A stretch of DNA of 64,000 nt. Origin: Sulfolobales archaeon HS-7. Lineage in GTDB: Archaea > Thermoproteota > Thermoprotei_A > Sulfolobales > Sulfolobaceae. The stretch covers positions 352,001-416,000 of the forward strand of contig AP024596.1 in NCBI GenBank assembly GCA_019704295.1, in the 5' to 3' direction. The position numbers and the translations under genes were made by a program. Under the pieces are notes generated by a model, which was given only the letters and a program-made list of their open reading frames with translations, searched no databases and was not told where the DNA came from. This document shows positions 47,180-57,165 of the stretch, one piece after another (positions within the stretch are counted from its first letter, which is position 1; every line of letters starts with the position of its first letter).

Positions 47180-47353
47180 TTTATCCAGCCCACTTACCTA
47201 TTCATTGCGAAATTAGTTTATGTAGAAAAATAAAATGAATTTAGTTGATGCGATCGTATGGACTAGGTAGAGATTCGCATTTAACAATTCCCTTTATCTA
47301 ATACCTAATTTACCATAATTACAATTAGCAATGGAAACCTGAAATCACCGAAT

Positions 47354-47584
47354 TTATCCCCACACGTAACCACTGGACGACGAACTGGAAGTTGTCGTGG
47401 TTGATGAACTTGACGTTGTTGATGAAGTGGAAGTTGTCTGGGTAGAAGTAACGGTCTGAGGACTTACGTGGGATGCGGACATCTTCATTGCAGCCATACC
47501 CATGAATACACCGCCTATCACTATTATTAAAACACTTAAGGCGAGTAACCCGATTTTTAATTTTCCCATTTTCTTTGATGCCAT
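47354..47584 (-). CDS. small membrane-anchored Ser/Thr-rich protein
   Basis: Basic N-terminus, one TM helix, S/T stalk, C-terminal GYVWG; own AT-rich promoter at ~47605-47620. Confidence 0.75.
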   Translation of the reverse strand: MASKKMGKLKIGLLALSVLIIVIGGVFMGMAAMKMSASHVSPQTVTSTQTTSTSSTTSSSSTTTTSSSSSSGYVWG

Positions 47585-47628
47585 AAATTGCGCTATTATA
47601 CTGCTTTAATAATCTTTTTCCCAAATCC

Positions 47629-48366
47629 TCATACCTCACCCCGACTTATCTCATCGGGATCGGGTTTCCTACTGATCAGCCTCCCCCCATCTATAATTAT
47701 CTCCGTTCCTGTGATGAAGGTATTCATGTCTGAGGAGAGAAATACAAGCAAATTCGCGACTTCCTCAGGTCTTCCCATTCTGCCTAAAAGGGTGGCGGAA
47801 CGCAGATCCAGGTTTTCAGGTACATCATCCCCTTTTGTGTATATAGGTCCAGGTAATACCGTAATGACCTGAATGCCGTATTGACCTAAGTCGACGGCCA
47901 TGCTTCTTGCCATTGAGATCAGTCCACCTTTCGTTACGGCGTAAGGAAGGGAACTCCTCAGAGGGGAAAAAGCCTGTATTGCTGATACGTTAATTATCTT
48001 TCCTCTGTTCCCATTCCTAATCATTGCCTCAGCTGCCGCTTTCGACAAAAACATAGGAGCCGTTAGATTTAACTCTATCATAGAGTTCCATTCCTCCTCA
48101 GAAACTTCCAATACTGAATACCTGGAGTTACGCGACGCGTTATTGATAAGGGCATCTATATTCATCTCCCTTAATTGTAAATACACTCTTCTGATTTCCT
48201 CCCTTTTAGACAAGTCTGCTACAATGTAGTCTACGCTTATCTGAGGTACGGAACGGCCTATAACTGTTACGTTAGCTCCCTCTTCTAGGGCTCTTTTAGC
48301 GAAAGCAAGACCTATTCCGTGAGTTCCGCCGGTTATTACAATATGCTTATTTCTCAGGAGGTTCAT
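47629..48366 (-). CDS. SDR family oxidoreductase
   Basis: [19 protein letters not shown]. Confidence 0.92.
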
Positions 48367-49507
48367 CTTTGATATCCCCGAAGTACCTGTAATCCTTGCT
48401 GAAGTACTCCAGATGAAGCTTTCTATATGGATACTTATTTAGTGCGTCTTCATTAACGTCAAATCCGATACCCGGTTTCTTAGGTGGATATATGTAGCCG
48501 TTCCTCAGTTCAAAGTACTCCGTGAGCAGATCTTTTCTCACGCTGGGTGCATCTAACCAAAACTCCATTATTAACCCGTTAGGCATAGTAAGCATAGCAT
48601 TAAGCGTGTGAGCGGTAGCTATAGGACCGTTTGGATTATGTGGGGCAACAGATAGATATTTCGCAGAAGCCAGAGAAGCTATTTTGGAAAGAGTTCCCAA
48701 GCCTCCAACATGACAAACGTCAGGTTGAATTACATCTGCTGCTCCTGAGTTTATGAGTTCAACGAACCTATTTAACGTGACCAATCTCTCACCGGTAGCT
48801 ATAGTAATTATGGATTTTGACCTTACTACCTTCAACGAGTCTATGTCTTCCTCAGGTACAGGCTCCTCTAGCCAAAAAACGTTATATTTCCTCAACATTT
48901 CTGCAACTCGAATTGATGAAGCTATGTTAAATCTGCCATGAGCATCTACTAATATGTCGAAGTTGTCCCCTACCGCATCCCTAACTGCGGAGACCCTATC
49001 TTCAGCCCTTTTAAGTTCCTCGTCCGTAATCGTTGGCCCACTTCCTCCAAACGGATCGAATTTAGCGGCTTTAAATCCAAGTTCCTTAACTTTTTTAAAT
49101 GCCTTAACAAACTCGTCTACTTCCCTATCGCCTGATATGAAACCGTTAGCGTAGACCTTTATCCTATTACTGACCTCTCCACCTAGCATCTGGTATAAGG
49201 GGACTTGAAGTTCCTTAGCTTTTGCGTCCCATAGAGCCTGCTCCACTGCGCTTACGGCCGTCATAAGTATCGGTCCTCCTCTCCAGAAGAAGTTCTTCGT
49301 TAAGAAGTTATATGCCCAATTAGGGTTGACTTCTTTGCTGAGAAGGTGGGGCTTGAAGTCGAGAATGGCAGCCTCTACTGTGGATTCGAAATCACCCATA
49401 GTTCCCTCCCCGTACCCCTTAATACCGTTGTCCGTTGTGACTTCCACTACTACGAAGTTCCTCCAGACTGCATAGATCTTGTATACTTTTATGTCAGCGA
49501 TCTTCAT
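48347..49507 (-). CDS. enolase-superfamily sugar-acid dehydratase (DgoD/mandelate racemase subgroup)
   Basis: KFDP, DAHGR, WLEEP, TGER, APHNP; GGTGAGG Shine-Dalgarno before ATG 49507. Confidence 0.9.
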
Positions 49508-49511
49508 GTCC

Positions 49512-50591
49512 TCACCTTGACGTACTAAAAGATTCATAAATTGGTTGTAAAACTACGGGAGGCAATTCGTCCTTAATACGAAAAGTCCCCCCAGTTCTCT
49601 CTGCCAAATGCTCTAAAAGAAAACTATCCTCTTCTAGGATTTCCCCTATTACGTTGAACCTACCATCAGCATTTACGTCTTTCTTGAAAATCCAGACTTG
49701 AATGTAATGAGGATTGTCATTGACTACACATACCGAACCAGAATACCTTCTCACGACGTTTCTGGGAGTTATGTTGTTTTCCCCCGCTGTAGTTAATCCT
49801 ACGGAGTTTTCCTTTATTCTAACGTCCCGAAATTCCCTTCCGAAAACCTTCTTCTCTTCCTCTGTTACGTTTGGATACACCCTTACTCGTAATCTTGTAT
49901 ACATTAAAGATGACGATACGTCCTCTAGTTCTGTTTTTGTGGGTTCTGGTTCTCCTATCCAGATCCTGTCTATTACTTTGGTGTTAATTAGGACATTCGC
50001 CGATGTTCCTATATCTAGTTCCCTTAAAGTTTCAATAGTGCTCCTTGCTCCTCCTTTTCTAACTATAAAAGCTGCTACCGAGATTCCCCTGCTGTGAAAT
50101 TCCTTCGATTTAGCTACGGCGTCCTCAAGCGATAGCCCTGTTTCCATCCAAGGGTAAAAATCATGAGATGCCATGACCAGTTCTGGATCCCTTACCTTCC
50201 TAAGAAACTCGTCAATGTGATCTACGGGAAATACACTAGCATTAAGTTCCGTTTTCAGACCTAGTTCGTTATTAGCTATTTCTACCATCTCGTCTAGGGA
50301 GAAACCCCAGTCTAGCCTCAAACCTCCCACTCCTATATCCTTAAAGACCCTTAGATTTCTTGGAGACGCGCCTAGCTGGTTGAAAACGTCAGGGCTAACG
50401 TCTACAACGTAATAAAAGCCGAGGTTATTCAACAGTTCTGCGATCTCTTTTGCCTTACCAACAGTTTCCCTTGCTATCCCTGACCAAACCTCAGTGTACC
50501 CTAGTTCTCTTGCCAATGGTAGGAGTTCCTTTTGTTTTTTTAGATAGTCGTCATTCCATAGGGTTAGTAACATACCTAACTTTTTCGTCAT
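49512..50591 (-). CDS. MupG/DUF871-like TIM-barrel glycoside hydrolase
   Basis: DVSP, LRLDWGF, ELNAS, SHDFYP..ETGLS, TIE; C-terminal FNVIGEI..ED..LL segment. Confidence 0.75.
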   Translation of the reverse strand: MTKKLGMLLTLWNDDYLKKQKELLPLARELGYTEVWSGIARETVGKAKEIAELLNNLGFYYVVDVSPDVFNQLGASPRNLRVFKDIGVGGLRLDWGFSLDEMVEIANNELGLKTELNASVFPVDHIDEFLRKVRDPELVMASHDFYPWMETGLSLEDAVAKSKEFHSRGISVAAFIVRKGGARSTIETLRELDIGTSANVLINTKVIDRIWIGEPEPTKTELEDVSSSLMYTRLRVRVYPNVTEEEKKVFGREFRDVRIKENSVGLTTAGENNITPRNVVRRYSGSVCVVNDNPHYIQVWIFKKDVNADGRFNVIGEILEEDSFLLEHLAERTGGTFRIKDELPPVVLQPIYESFSTSR

Positions 50592-50696
50592 TGAGATAAT
50601 AGTTAAGACCACGTTTAAAAGTGTAGTACGAATTCCAAAGGGAATACAATTGTGTATGCGTTAGATATTTAACTTTCATTTATAATATAATGCACT

Positions 50697-50987
50697 ATGG
50701 GAAAAGGTCTCATTCACTCTAAAGACGACGACGTCTGCGTTGTTGTTGCAGACGTAAAACAGGGGGAAGAGGTTGTATGTTCTTCTATAGAAGATCCGAG
50801 GTATACTGTGGTTATAAAGGCCATTAACGATATACCTCTTGGTCATAAAATAGCTCTAAGGAAAATCGGAGAGGGTAACGACGTTAAGAAATACGGAAGA
50901 AGTATAGGTGTAGCAACAAAGGAGATTTCATTAGGCGAACACGTGCATGTCCATAACATTAAGTCGAAGAGGTGGGGAAAACGATAG
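50697..50987 (+). CDS. suyA: SAF-domain small subunit of UxaA family (SuyA-like)
   Basis: DDVCVV, DIPLGHKIAL, KYG, GEHVHVHNIKSKRW. Confidence 0.75.
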   Translation: MGKGLIHSKDDDVCVVVADVKQGEEVVCSSIEDPRYTVVIKAINDIPLGHKIALRKIGEGNDVKKYGRSIGVATKEISLGEHVHVHNIKSKRWGKR

Positions 50988-52141
50988 AAATAAAGGGTTA
51001 TGTAAGGGAAGACGGTTCCGTCGGAATAAGGAATCACGTTGCTATAATCCCGCTGGATGATCTTTCAAACACTGCCGTAATGGGAGTTGCTAAACTAGTA
51101 AGGGGCACCGTACCCCTTCCTCATCATTACGGCAGACTTCAATTCGGTAAAGACCTAGATCTAATGTTCCACATTCTCGGGGGCAGTGGTGCAAATGCCA
51201 ACGTAGCAGGAGCAATAGTTATAGGAATTGAGGAGAACTGGGCAAATAAGGTAGCGGACTTAATCGCGAAAACGGGTAAACCCGTTGAGGTCTATCCCAT
51301 TGAGGGGTACGGCGACTTAAGGACAATTGAGAGAGCGTCAAGAAAGGCTAAGGAAATGGTTCAGGAGGCATCAGAAAAACAACGTACTACTGTGGATCTC
51401 TCCTCAATTGTAATGAGCATAAAGTGCGGGGAGTCAGATACAACCTCGGGTTTAGCTTCAAATCCTGCCACCGGAATAGCCGTAGATAAAGTGATAGATA
51501 ACGGAGGGACAGTCATGTTTGGAGAAACGTCGGAATTAACTGGAGCGGAGGACATAGTTGCCGAGAAGATAAGGGATGAGGAGTTGAGGAAAAAATTCAT
51601 GAAAATATATGACGAATACATCACTGAGGTAGAAAGCAAGGGGGCAGACCTCCTGGGTTCGCAGCCTACGCAGGGCAACATCAAGGGAGGACTAAGCACT
51701 ATAGAGGAAAAAGCTCTAGGTAACATTCAGAAACTTGGTCGTCGAGAGGTTAATTGCGTTCTTGATTACCTTGACGAATTACCTAGTAATAGACACGGTA
51801 CACTATGCTTTGTTAATACGTCTTCTGCAGCCGCTGAGGCGGTAACTCTATTCGCATCCAAGGGATCTGTAATTCACTTATTTACAACAGGCCAAGGTAA
51901 CATAGTAGGCCATCCATTAATACCAGTTGTCAAAATAACGGCGAATCCAAAAACGGCAAAACTAATGTCGGAGCACATTGACGTTGATCTCTCTGAGCTA
52001 CTGGAGATGAGGATATCCCTGGAAGAAGCAGGGGAGAGAGTGTTCCAGTATTCTTTAAAAACAATCAACGGTAGACTAACCGCTTCTGAAGTATTACAGC
52101 ACGATGAGTTCGTTCCAATAAAACTATACATTAGTGCATGA
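50972..52141 (+). CDS. suyB: UxaA-family large subunit, sulfolactate sulfo-lyase SuyB-like
   Basis: GIRNHVAIIPLDDLSN, YGRLQFG, KCGESDTT, SQPTQGN, SSAAAEAVTL, C-terminal KLYISA. Confidence 0.75.
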   Translation: MGKTIEIKGYVREDGSVGIRNHVAIIPLDDLSNTAVMGVAKLVRGTVPLPHHYGRLQFGKDLDLMFHILGGSGANANVAGAIVIGIEENWANKVADLIAKTGKPVEVYPIEGYGDLRTIERASRKAKEMVQEASEKQRTTVDLSSIVMSIKCGESDTTSGLASNPATGIAVDKVIDNGGTVMFGETSELTGAEDIVAEKIRDEELRKKFMKIYDEYITEVESKGADLLGSQPTQGNIKGGLSTIEEKALGNIQKLGRREVNCVLDYLDELPSNRHGTLCFVNTSSAAAEAVTLFASKGSVIHLFTTGQGNIVGHPLIPVVKITANPKTAKLMSEHIDVDLSELLEMRISLEEAGERVFQYSLKTINGRLTASEVLQHDEFVPIKLYISA

Positions 52142-53491
52142 TCACTTTAACATTAGGTTCTCATACTGCTTTACGTATTGTAAGCTTCTTTTTACGTCTG
52201 CGAAGTATTTATACGCTTCCTGAACATCTGAGGCAGTTACTGTATCCCTTCCATTCCTTTCAGCTATTATGTTACTAGGTTCAAGTATCTCAACGCTATA
52301 TCTAAGACTTTCCTCTGTTCCCACTTTGGTTAGCTCAGCTACTGCATCATCCTGAAGCTTTATACCTAGTTCCGATGCCCTTATTTTCACTATTTCCCTT
52401 ATTTCATCAGCTGTGTAAGGCCGTGTAGGTATTATCAGCATTCGATCGAGGACGTCGAGAGGAATTCCATGTGGAGATTCAATATCCGTTCCCCTTATTT
52501 TTGCCATACCTCTATTTGTAGCTAATATAATTATAGGGGAGAGTTCGGCCTCTAAGGCCTTCGTTAAGAACGAAAAGGTCTCTATGTCAAGCATATGTGC
52601 GTCGTCTATGAAAAGTATTCCTGGTATCAATTCCCCGTTACCCTTATTTACCGCTTCCTTAACTAGTCTATCGACCTCTTTCCTAACATCTTGATTTATC
52701 TCTCTCTCGGTAAAAAGAGAGAATATTGAGGTAAAGGAGATACTCTGAGCGGCAACGTTAAGATCAAGGTCGTGCAATGTAAAGGTGTTAACGATCTCCT
52801 TTTCCTTCTTTACAGGTCCGACGGGCATTTCTACAACCCTAGGTCCTCCCACCTCATATTTGGACTCAGCACTCCTCCCTATTCTAAATACGTTTCCGGT
52901 GTCTGCATCTATCCATATAACGTCGCCCTTCCTTATCCCTAATCTGACTATCTGTTCTGCAACGCCCTCTCCAGCGGTTAATCGAGATTGATCATCCTTC
53001 GTTTTTAGCACTATTTCCGCCTCACGCGGCATTTGAGCATAGGGATTCATTCTACTTCTTGCCACCTTTACCTTAACTTCATCTACAACCCCTTCGTAAA
53101 CCATCCTCTTTTGCTTAAGCCTAACACCAATTGATTTTCTAATAGCCTGTGTTAATATCTCCGTCTTCTTAAGCTCCACAGAGTAGAGTTCGGTGGCATT
53201 TATCGTGTTGAATGGTGTGTCCTCTCCAAGTTCCTTGGCAATGGCTACGGCAATCGCTGTTTTACCTGTCCCAGGTGGACCAACAAACAGAACACCCTTG
53301 CCAGCCATTTTACCCTTTCGCACTAATTCAACTACAAGTCCAGCTGCTTCCCTTGCCTCCACCTGTCCTACAAGACCGTCTGCCTTGAACTCGGCCTTTC
53401 CATTTAGTTTTAAACCCAATCCCGTTATGTGACTGTGTATGCTTGCCTTTTCCACCTCGGATGGCCTTTTAACTTCCTTGATCTCGGCCAT
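52142..53491 (-). CDS. TIP49/RuvB-like AAA+ helicase
   Basis: [32 protein letters not shown]; ATG 53491 preferred. Confidence 0.93.
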
Positions 53492-53767
53492 CTTGGCTCC
53501 AATTAAATTTAATGACTGAGCTTTTGAGATTATCTTAACTTCAGCATTCCCTGAATCTCTTAACAAAGGAGTTTTTACCGAGACGTCTAAAGGCGAAACG
53601 TAGCAATGCTTTTTCAGGCTTAAGAGACTATGACGTTTCAAGGAACTATAAATTAATTTATATTATATTTAAAATATTAAAAAGAAAATTGTATATCTAG
53701 TAAATAATTACAGGAAAATCTGAAAGATTTTTTTAACAACGAGAGTTAACCTTACCTTAAAGATACT

Positions 53768-56100: not shown

Positions 56101-57165
56101 ATGATAATTAAAGCAGAGAAGATAGTCCTGAATACGACGATCATCTCAGGGTCTATAGAATTTGACGACAATGGAATAATTACAGCGGTTAACAAGGGTT
56201 CTACGAACAACGGGCTTATTCTGGTACCAGGCTTCGTAGATACCCACACTCACGGAATAGCGGGAAGGGACTTCTCCATTTCAGCAGAGGATGTAATCGA
56301 GGATTACGTCAAACATGGAGTAACGACTTACATCCCAACTGCAGTGTCTTTGAGCAGAGAAGGACTTAGAAAATTCTGTAGTCAAATGGCCTCTTCGAAA
56401 TCGAATGTATTCAACTTAGAGGGTCCTTACATAAGTGCGAGTAAGAGAGGTGCACATGCACTCTCTAATTTAAGAAAGCCTGATATAAGAGAGGTTGTTG
56501 AATGCATGAAGCTTTCCAAAAACAAACTTGCTGTAATAACCGTAGCACCAGAAATTGCAATGGAAGTAATTCCAGAGCTGATAAAAATGGGAATTATTGT
56601 GTCGATTGGACATACCGATGCAGATTTCCCCGTTTCCGAACTTGCTTACTTAAGTGGGGCAACTAGAACTACTCATATATTTAACGCAATGAGGACGTTC
56701 CATCACAGGGACCCCGGAGTAATTATCGCTTCTCTCCTTTACTCTAACTTCATTGAGGTGATTCCAGATTTTTTCCATGTTGATCAGCAAATTATCAAAT
56801 ACTTAATTCAGAACCACTGGAGAAGGTTGGTCGCCATAACAGACTCAATATCCGCTACAGACCTAGGTGATGGAGAGTATTCTCTAGGAGACGAAAAGGT
56901 ATTCGTAAAGGGAGGAAAAGCTAAACTCAAGGATGGAACCATTGCGGGTAGCACACTAACGATGGATAAGGCTTTTAGAAACGTTCTCGAGTTAACAGAT
57001 CTTCTTACGACATCTTCGATCGTAAGCTATAATCCGGCTAAATCTATTAATCTCAACGATAGGGGGGAACTGGGTATAGGGAAGAGAGCCGACTTAGTTG
57101 TCCTAGATTCGCATTATACTTTGAAGGAGGTTTACGCAGAAGGCAAGCTACTATTTCAGCATTAA
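56101..57165 (+). CDS. nagA: N-acetylglucosamine-6-phosphate deacetylase
   Basis: PGFVDTHTHG, LEGPY, GAH, TVAPE, GHT, THIFNAM, ITD, IAGS. Confidence 0.92.
   Translation: MIIKAEKIVLNTTIISGSIEFDDNGIITAVNKGSTNNGLILVPGFVDTHTHGIAGRDFSISAEDVIEDYVKHGVTTYIPTAVSLSREGLRKFCSQMASSKSNVFNLEGPYISASKRGAHALSNLRKPDIREVVECMKLSKNKLAVITVAPEIAMEVIPELIKMGIIVSIGHTDADFPVSELAYLSGATRTTHIFNAMRTFHHRDPGVIIASLLYSNFIEVIPDFFHVDQQIIKYLIQNHWRRLVAITDSISATDLGDGEYSLGDEKVFVKGGKAKLKDGTIAGSTLTMDKAFRNVLELTDLLTTSSIVSYNPAKSINLNDRGELGIGKRADLVVLDSHYTLKEVYAEGKLLFQH

Follow-up and report, generated by a model that had tools for sequence, protein, structure and literature searches.

The genes considered here lie on a 64,000-nucleotide stretch of the complete, 2.15-Mb genome of Sulfolobales archaeon HS-7, family Sulfolobaceae (GenBank assembly GCA_019704295.1, contig AP024596.1, positions 352,001 to 416,000; hereafter the window), where a three-gene minus-strand operon and a two-gene plus-strand unit diverge from one short promoter region (Table 1). 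The operon encodes a MupG-like protein, an enolase-superfamily dehydratase (MR2) and an SDR-family dehydrogenase, and the plus-strand unit encodes a split UxaA-type pair that we assign, on strong sequence evidence, to the SuyAB (sulfolactate sulfo-lyase) family. Together these genes may specify a non-phosphorylative Entner-Doudoroff (ED) type route for a 6-sulfo sugar, most likely sulfoquinovose (SQ), that ends in desulfonation, a reading to which we give a probability of roughly 0.55. Open reading frames (ORFs), Pfam domains and direct reading of the sequence confirm the five genes and the spacing described in the original prediction, which was made from the letters of this DNA: the MupG-like stop codon (TGA, 49514-49512) is followed by the four bases GGAC and then by the dehydratase ATG at 49507, which is preceded by a Shine-Dalgarno-like GGTGAGG motif; there is a 20-bp overlap (48347-48366) between the dehydratase gene and the SDR gene; and the promoter region, put at ~105 bp, has this length. 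The suyA and suyB genes overlap by 16 bp.

Table 1. Features of the locus and MR1-type genes elsewhere; positions are those of the window unless a contig (C1) or locus (L) prefix is given.
Feature	Position	Strand	Evidence or context
SDR-family dehydrogenase, 245 aa	47629..48366	-	Pfam adh_short_C2 (144 bits), adh_short
Enolase-superfamily acid-sugar dehydratase MR2, 386 aa	48347..49507	-	Pfam MR_MLE_N, MR_MLE_C (208 bits)
MupG-like (DUF871/GH170) TIM-barrel protein, 359 aa	49512..50591	-	Pfam MupG_N (161 bits), MupG_C (44 bits)
Divergent promoter region common to both units, 105 bp	50592..50696		Read directly
SuyA, small SAF-domain subunit, 96 aa	50697..50987	+	Pfam SAF
SuyB, large catalytic subunit, 389 aa	50972..52141	+	Pfam GD_AH_second, GD_AH_C (272 bits)
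MR1 copy	L002:9185-10315		Enolase superfamily, after suyB
MR1 copy	L001:9176-10318		Enolase superfamily, after suyB
MR1 copy	L003:9873-10985		Enolase superfamily, after suyB
Sole MR1-clade member of the host genome	C1:123401-124492 (L137:8401-9492)		~228 kb before the window start, in a GH116-GH36-MR operon

The tandem arrangement of a small SAF-domain subunit and a large UxaA-type subunit is that of SuyAB, and the large subunit contains all five SuyB-type motifs that had been singled out in it (PLDDLSN, YGRLQFG, KCGESDTT, SSAAAE and KLYxSA, here KLYISA). SuyB of Cupriavidus pinatubonensis, Paracoccus versutus and Desulfovibrio has the first four in identical or almost identical form; the fifth has the KLYxSA form in P. 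versutus and Desulfovibrio and reads RIHESA in C. pinatubonensis, and all five differ in Escherichia coli UxaA and in the split UxaA of a fucose cluster. The best bacterial matches found by tblastn in plasmid records are 51-58% identical to the window protein and are suyB genes in sulfonate clusters. The C. pinatubonensis locus has two UxaA-family genes, suyA-suyB, after hpsN-hpsO-MFS-hpsP; that of P. versutus reads GntR-suyA-suyB followed by a sulfite/sulfate exporter-family gene, with a sulfite oxidase gene nearby and hpsNOP-like genes upstream; in Rhodococcus koreensis suyAB is followed by genes for an aldehyde dehydrogenase, an MFS transporter, a hydroxyacid dehydrogenase and an Ldh-family dehydrogenase; and in Sinorhizobium mexicanum the pair adjoins SuyZ-, SlcC- and ComC-like genes and a sugar module. 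A further 75 bacterial loci (54-62% identity) include 32 with SlcC-like as well as ComC-like genes, nine with a SuyZ-like exporter gene and four with hpsNOP. Other split UxaA forms, from a Bacillus fucose cluster, Haloferax, Escherichia albertii and Selenomonas, are only 33-41% identical to the window protein. For the small subunit, identity is 39-43% with SuyA of C. pinatubonensis, P. versutus and Rhodococcus and 47-65% with the archaeal SuyA proteins compared.

A maximum likelihood tree of 50 sequences, including 18 archaeal and 25 bacterial SuyB proteins, with support from the Shimodaira-Hasegawa-like approximate likelihood ratio test (SH-aLRT), joins 18/18 archaeal proteins in one clade (SH-aLRT 99) nested in the SuyB clade (support 100, stem 0.63), which excludes GarD, E. 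coli UxaA and every other split UxaA form. Four cysteines, proposed to be iron ligands, are conserved across the UxaA/GarD superfamily with the exception of SuyAB (Watanabe et al., 2019). At the positions of C132, C166 and C199 of E. coli UxaA the window protein has L, R and a gap, so that the cysteine of KCGESDTT is the sole one kept, and the four positions read L/I, R, gap and C in 43/43 members of the SuyB clade (25/25 bacterial ones included). The window protein also matches 37 of 38 signature columns, chosen because they hardly vary among bacterial SuyB proteins and are rare in other sequences, and the five motifs are among these signatures. Phylogeny, clade-signature residues and cysteine pattern thus uphold the SuyAB assignment, and the predicted activity of the plus-strand pair, which on the most likely reading shares the probability given above jointly with the whole pathway, would be cleavage of (2R)-3-sulfolactate to pyruvate and sulfite. 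Two related loci are of interest in their own right. In one (L159:8760-11109) suyB is in two pieces, separated by a ~1.2-kb insertion that encodes an IS110-family transposase. The other, on plasmid 4 of Variovorax sp. SRS16 (L130:5693-7140), has a split UxaA pair that is ~40% identical to SuyB, forms the sister of the SuyB clade, has neighbors of the same kind (GntR, a hydroxyacid dehydrogenase, an Ldh-family dehydrogenase and a binding protein of the tripartite tricarboxylate transporter type) and might act on a related hydroxy acid as a lyase or dehydratase.

The genomic linkage of this pair to the genes of the divergent operon was surveyed in 301 genomes of the class, with Sulfolobaceae counts taken on 44 genomes (43 sampled plus the host) and gene orders read at 20 Sulfolobaceae suyB loci; the counts are a description of this sample and should not be read as statistics, since related genomes lack independence. 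An ortholog of suyB is present in 21/44 Sulfolobaceae and in a few other families. The original prediction was staked in part on the two halves of the locus being linked in other genomes, and such linkage was found: an ortholog of the SDR gene lies within ~7 kb of suyB in 9/20 loci, and the genes within ~10 kb include a divergent enolase-superfamily gene that we call MR1 (19/20 loci), a ComC-like gene (8/20), genes for an aldehyde dehydrogenase, an SGL-type lactonase and an HpcH-type aldolase (5/20 each) and MR2 (3/20). The lactonase gene stands beside the SDR gene at its five loci and in Acidianus hospitalis. These juxtapositions are seen in differing arrangements and with differing paralogs in at least three lineages. 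In A. hospitalis the successive blocks are MFS; suyA-suyB-MR1-GntR; SDR-aldehyde dehydrogenase-MR2-SGL; and GH116, and the complete set of SDR, lactonase, MR2, aldehyde dehydrogenase and suyAB is found in three Acidianus species (A. hospitalis, A. brierleyi and A. manzaensis). One Thermoplasmatota metagenome-assembled genome (MAG) assembles genes for a 2-hydroxyacid dehydrogenase, a DHDPS-type aldolase, an MBL-type hydrolase, MR2, an aldehyde dehydrogenase, the SDR, SuyA, SuyB, GntR, MR1 and an MFS transporter, and a Thermoproteaceae MAG has SDR-aldehyde dehydrogenase next to suyA-suyB. When the archaeal loci are compared and combined, they would supply a full ED-type sulfosugar gene set. In addition, one and the same aldehyde dehydrogenase ortholog adjoins suyAB and a comC-like gene in Metallosphaera, and in Acidianus and Stygiolobus it has MR2 and SGL as neighbors; since it accompanies either module, it bridges the two, as expected of a joining enzyme. 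The ComC-like neighbor has L-sulfolactate dehydrogenase as its best NCBIfam model (234 bits, cut-off 500), the next model scoring 137 bits.

The SDR protein is proposed to be a sugar 1-dehydrogenase and is a candidate SQ dehydrogenase. Its best NCBIfam matches, none of which reaches its cut-off, are the glucose-, aldose- and L-rhamnose-1-dehydrogenase models, and a search of the Protein Data Bank (PDB) returned generic SDR matches only. Orthologs of 59-66% identity occur in 17/44 Sulfolobaceae, 16 of which are suyB-positive, and they frequently adjoin an SGL-type lactonase gene. Identity to the corresponding A. hospitalis genes is 62% for the SDR and 60% for MR2. We propose MR2 as a candidate 6-deoxy-6-sulfogluconate dehydratase. 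It scores 308 bits on the NCBIfam gluconate/galactonate dehydratase model, against a cut-off of 750, and is therefore regarded as a paralog and not as the housekeeping enzyme. The window gene forms a clade (SH-aLRT 100) with those of A. hospitalis, A. brierleyi, A. manzaensis and the Thermoplasmatota MAG, separate from the clade of the genome's presumed housekeeping gluconate dehydratase paralog (36% identity between the two), and MR2 orthologs are found in 5/44 Sulfolobaceae genomes, all five of them suyB- and SDR-positive. An equation of the SDR and MR2 with the known Sulfolobus genes for L-fucose and D-arabinose was rejected, as these are the MDR-family SSO1300 and the dehydratase SSO3124; MR2 reaches 149 bits on the model for archaeal arabinonate dehydratase, the cut-off of which is 650.

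In the MupG-like protein both the MupG_N and the MupG_C domain score above their cut-offs, and its PDB relatives are 1x7f and 2p0o. MupG homologs of Sulfolobales have been noted before, with a function described as unknown and probably different and with catalytic residues given as unknown (Kluj et al., 2018; PMC6262408). Within the class sampled the family was found only in Sulfolobaceae (18/44 genomes, 16 of these with an SDR ortholog), and its members lie 10 kb or less from suyB in 7/20 loci, in at least three different arrangements. The closest orthologs (46-55% identity), from Stygiolobus, Acidianus, Caldivirga and metagenomes, are not beside suyAB; their context consists of Opp-type ABC transporter or glycosidase clusters, or is unrelated. 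Across the archaeal family the neighbors include genes for a GH38 alpha-mannosidase, GH116 and GH36 enzymes, Opp-type ABC transporters, GlmS-like, ROK and NagA-like/amidohydrolase proteins, and also SDR, MR paralogs and suyAB. The context of peptidoglycan recycling (MurP phosphotransferase-system transporter, MurQ etherase) is absent at the window gene, whose neighbors are the dehydratase, SDR and suyAB genes. A NagA-like amidohydrolase gene (56101-57165, plus strand) lies 4 kb downstream of suyB and scores 219 bits on the N-acetylglucosamine (GlcNAc)-6-phosphate deacetylase model (cut-off 226); NagA-like and GlmS-like genes accompany MupG-like genes in other Sulfolobaceae as well.

Compact clusters were also seen on a Candidatus Acidianus copahuensis contig (L118:4257-16029) and a metagenome contig (L135:1886-11825), which hold genes for a GH38 alpha-mannosidase, GH116 or GH36, a MupG-like protein, an amidohydrolase or GlmS-like protein, an SDR, and MR or SGL proteins; they look like dedicated glycan-salvage loci that match the sugars of Sulfolobales N-glycans, in which SQ is beta-linked to GlcNAc. 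Because the neighbor set of the MupG-like genes covers each of these sugars, glycan salvage with a beta-sulfoquinovosidase is plausible, and the gene neighborhoods suggest that the MupG-like protein is a cytoplasmic glycosidase that frees the sugar from a glycan fragment, which makes it a candidate for that enzyme.

In the pathway that we favor, every substrate is inferred, as are the part played by the MupG-like protein and the steps whose genes lie elsewhere. The MupG-like hydrolase would free SQ from an imported or recycled glycan fragment, the SDR would oxidize it to sulfogluconolactone, this lactone would open to sulfogluconate, either spontaneously at high temperature or through some lactonase, and MR2 would dehydrate sulfogluconate to 2-keto-3,6-dideoxy-6-sulfogluconate. 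An aldolase encoded elsewhere, probably the 2-keto-3-deoxy-(6-phospho)gluconate (KD(P)G) aldolase homolog at ~484 kb, would then form pyruvate and sulfolactaldehyde, an aldehyde dehydrogenase encoded elsewhere would yield (S)-sulfolactate, and after inversion to the (R) form SuyAB would release sulfite and a second pyruvate. The non-phosphorylative, branched ED pathway that Sulfolobales run employs a gluconate dehydratase of the enolase type together with a promiscuous KD(P)G aldolase, and since the dehydratase type is already in use, a paralog for the 6-sulfo analog would be a small step. The host genome encodes a UDP-sulfoquinovose synthase (C1:507498-508661; L164:1495-2658) that scores 623 bits on the NCBIfam equivalog model (cut-off 575) and 330 bits to plant SQD1, so the organism makes SQ itself, and a recent review reports the sugar in Sulfolobus N-glycans.

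Several observations weigh against this pathway. Searches of the host genome with tblastn found no SGL- or MBL-type lactonase, no ComC-like/SlcC-type racemase gene, no SuyZ-type exporter and no ortholog of the cluster-linked aldehyde dehydrogenase, the best paralog of which is 46% identical and lies among fatty-acid genes. An aldolase and an aldehyde dehydrogenase, of which the clusters of relatives carry dedicated copies, are both absent from the window; a DHDPS-family KD(P)G aldolase homolog (genome 484028-484873) and aldehyde dehydrogenase paralogs are present elsewhere in the genome. The SDR and MR2 give matches at the family level only, and a specific kinship of MR2 with SfcF was rejected: MR2 is ~37% identical to the S. 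mexicanum SfcF homolog, which sits on a long unresolved branch, and is no closer to it than to ordinary gluconate dehydratases. For the aldehyde dehydrogenase linked to the clusters, the lactaldehyde dehydrogenase model gives the highest score, below its cut-off, a result that would fit an ordinary 6-deoxyhexose too. In the Saccharolobus/Sulfolobus group the SDR ortholog is far from suyAB, and MR1, the usual companion of suyAB, does not adjoin the pair in the window. Finally, sulfosugar breakdown gives (S)-sulfolactate and SuyAB is (R)-specific, a gap that bacteria bridge via SlcC/ComC. The pathway first proposed for this locus is upheld in part: the assignment of the pair to SuyAB and the linkage of the halves stand, but the mismatch between (S)- and (R)-sulfolactate had been overlooked, and the genome search gave neither a racemase nor a lactonase.

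The gene order in other archaea offers a candidate for the inversion step. MR1, which has no close characterized relative, comes after suyB in 19/20 other Sulfolobaceae loci and also follows it in Vulcanisaeta, Thermoplasmatota and other archaeal MAG loci, and the minimal locus, in Vulcanisaeta, consists of MFS-GntR-suyAB-MR1. This constant pairing with suyAB, even in minimal loci, suggests that MR1 handles the other enantiomer, either as a sulfolactate racemase or as a direct (S)-sulfolactate sulfo-lyase that would replace SlcC/ComC; alternatively, it may be a second sugar-acid dehydratase.

A broader and more tentative proposal, which we think unlikely to hold in all its parts, is that the locus belongs to a dispersed N-glycan-recycling regulon, that the MupG-like protein is the first beta-sulfoquinovosidase, that SQ is fully mineralized by what would be the first sulfoglycolytic pathway of archaea and that MR1 replaces SlcC/ComC in most archaea. 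One enzyme would then serve each sugar, with GH38 acting on mannose, GH116 on glucose, and NagA-like and GlmS-like proteins on GlcNAc. The GH170 protein would recognize a C6 sulfonate where bacterial MupG recognizes a C6 phosphate, and SQ would be mineralized through the SDR, an enolase-type sulfogluconate dehydratase, a KD(P)G aldolase, an aldehyde dehydrogenase and SuyAB.

Of the competing explanations, the one that survives best, although we consider it doubtful, is that two separate functions happen to be neighbors, SuyAB serving C3 sulfonates (sulfolactate, 2,3-dihydroxypropane-1-sulfonate or cysteate-derived sulfopyruvate, taken up or otherwise formed) and the upper operon serving a salvaged glycan sugar that carries no sulfonate group, for example mannose, an amino sugar or a 6-deoxyhexose (rhamnose, fucose or quinovose). 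In Metallosphaera and Vulcanisaeta the suyAB-MR1-GntR block comes with MFS, joined in Metallosphaera by ComC-like and aldehyde dehydrogenase genes, and orthologs of the SDR, MR2 and the MupG-like protein are absent, so the lower module appears to work alone, in Metallosphaera apparently on C3 sulfonates. A comparison of Metallosphaera genomes reported that families of malate/L-lactate dehydrogenase, aldehyde dehydrogenase, altronate-related proteins and sulfite oxidase were lost together in M. cuprina (PMC7325606), which would fit the loss of the suyAB module as a unit. Conversely, one suyB-negative genome keeps SDR, MR paralog, NagA-like, GlmS-like and MupG-like genes together, a further point against the sulfosugar pathway, and the upper module can therefore exist without SuyAB. 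The NagA-like gene downstream in the window and the sub-cut-off matches of the SDR and the linked aldehyde dehydrogenase to L-rhamnose 1-dehydrogenase and lactaldehyde dehydrogenase models likewise count in favor of separate functions. Against them stand the near-restriction of SDR orthologs, and the full restriction of MR2 orthologs, to suyB-positive Sulfolobaceae genomes, the physical joining of the genes in several genera and in the Thermoplasmatota MAG, the shared aldehyde dehydrogenase ortholog, and the different types of the known Sulfolobus enzymes for L-fucose and D-arabinose together with the low arabinonate score of MR2.

A variant with distinctly lower odds keeps the pathway and changes its substrate or source, the sugar being sulfofucose or another 6-sulfo hexose, or the SQ coming as alpha-linked sulfoquinovosyl glycerol or lipid from acid-spring algae, in which case the MupG-like protein would cut another glycan bond. 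It draws on the enolase-type dehydratase, a hallmark of the sulfofucose route and not of the Pseudomonas SQ route, on GH36-family genes beside SGL-SDR-suyAB in Sulfurisphaera and Stygiolobus, and on the transporter and glycosidase context of the closest MupG-like orthologs. Recruitment of an enolase-type gluconate dehydratase paralog for sulfogluconate would, however, be the simplest step, and the host makes UDP-sulfoquinovose. Nearly excluded, by the tree and the cysteine pattern, is an ordinary UxaA/GarD-type dehydratase (for instance a heteromeric enzyme for L-fuconate, altronate or galactarate) that would be the second dehydratase of a uronate or hexarate route and have no C-S lyase activity: the Pfam domains are those of galactarate/altronate dehydratases, the sole NCBIfam match of the large subunit is galactarate dehydratase (143 bits, cut-off 731), public annotations call the archaeal homologs altronate or galactarate dehydratase (in some automatic pipelines, sulfolactate sulfo-lyase) and heteromeric dehydratases do exist in the superfamily, one of them in the Bacillus fucose cluster, but the protein lies inside the SuyB clade and outside every dehydratase-type sequence sampled, has lost three of the four dehydratase cysteines, carries the SuyB-specific positions and is much closer to SuyB (51-62% identity) than to other split forms.

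The regulation of the locus can be approached from its promoter region. In the divergent region each start codon has, ~25-30 nt upstream, a TATA-like element rich in A/T, a position that fits leaderless archaeal transcripts. The middle of the region (window 50632-50657) contains two 5-bp inverted repeats, ATTCC-N4-GGAAT and ATACA-N4-TGTAT, which are possible regulator sites. Comparison of the 105-bp promoter with the upstream regions of candidate regulon genes (the GH116-GH36-MR operon, GntR, GH38, MFS and UDP-sulfoquinovose synthase) revealed no shared operator, only A/T-rich chance 9-mers, and a scan for sigma-70 promoters and terminators gave background levels only. A GntR/FCD gene, which accompanies suyAB in other genomes, is not adjacent here; its nearest homolog is at ~1.04 Mb of the host genome. 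Two flanking reading frames complete the picture. The 104-codon ORF downstream of the SDR gene (47325-47639, minus strand) is probably no gene, having an odd composition, no Pfam or NCBIfam family and no homolog in any fetched locus. Directly after suyB, on the opposite strand, a TIP49/RuvB-like AAA+ ATPase is encoded (52142-53641, minus strand; 446 bits on the TIP49 P-loop domain), with no evident connection to the cluster.

The pathways known to degrade SQ are all bacterial, none having been characterized in archaea or eukaryotes according to a 2026 review, and our search of the literature on UxaA, altronate and sulfolactate with Sulfolobus or Metallosphaera found no functional assignment of archaeal suyAB genes. 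The SuyAB genes themselves are further members of a known family, and the locus points to a first archaeal route of SQ breakdown, which, in organisms that make this sugar for their N-glycans, would concern its disposal or reuse. Two of the candidate activities would be novel, that of a beta-sulfoquinovosidase of family GH170 and that of an enolase-superfamily protein on sulfolactate. The assignment corrects a widespread annotation of archaeal genes as altronate or galactarate dehydratase, and the loci provide a concrete, testable gene set, with thermostable candidates for every step, in cultivable and partly genetically tractable thermoacidophiles.

Comparison with characterized systems places the locus among several known themes. 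The SuyAB enzymes (EC 4.4.1.24) of Paracoccus pantotrophus NKNCYSA and C. pinatubonensis JMP134 share its subunit plan (a small SAF subunit of ~95 aa and a large one of ~390 aa), and bacterial SuyAB shares its clade, at 51-54% identity, the signature motifs and the loss of three of the four cysteines. The archaeal sequences, in contrast, form their own subclade; the host genome lacks a SuyZ/TauE-type exporter, hpsNOP and the SlcC/ComC pair; and bacterial suyAB clusters have no counterpart of MR1. The heteromeric L-fuconate dehydratase (Paraburkholderia mimosarum, Watanabe et al., 2019; Bacillus sp. S3 fucose cluster) has the same split layout of small and large subunits but is ~40% identical, falls outside the SuyB clade and has Cys, like the dehydratases, at both of the motif positions displayed (PTVVCAN, HGCSQIG).

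Among whole pathways, the closest parallel is the sulfofucose ED pathway of Paracoccus wurundjeri, which was reconstituted in vitro and proceeds through an SDR, an SGL lactonase, an MR_MLE-type dehydratase and an aldolase to SlcC/ComC and SuyAB (PMC12421959; mBio, 2025). The same work names S. mexicanum as a carrier of the tandem pathway, and the syntenic cluster that we examined there has the same make-up. The archaeal genes resemble this system in the families used per step (SGL in relatives) and in the prospect of full mineralization within one organism, and differ in that the aldolase is of DHDPS or HpcH type by lineage, the racemization step would not be SlcC/ComC, the sugar is probably gluco-configured and MR2 is not specifically related to SfcF. 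The sulfo-ED pathway of Pseudomonas putida SQ1 (Felux et al., 2015; families per PMC12421959) has the same reaction order and SDR, lactonase and aldehyde dehydrogenase families, but its dehydratase is of the IlvD/Edd family (PF00920) instead of the enolase superfamily, and it excretes sulfolactate, whereas SuyAB would here complete the breakdown. With the branched ED pathway of Sulfolobus the proposed route shares its chemical logic, its dehydratase superfamily and, through the KD(P)G aldolase homolog elsewhere in the genome, the likely provider of aldolase activity; it differs in that MR2 is a separate paralog, the dehydrogenase is an SDR and the product would be sulfolactaldehyde and not glyceraldehyde. 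Staphylococcus aureus MupG, a GH170 6-phospho-N-acetylmuramidase (PMC6262408), belongs to a peptidoglycan-based system that archaea lack, but it has both Pfam domains and the fold family in common with the window protein, and it cleaves a beta-linked sugar with an anionic group at C6 from GlcNAc, the geometry expected for SQ in the N-glycan.

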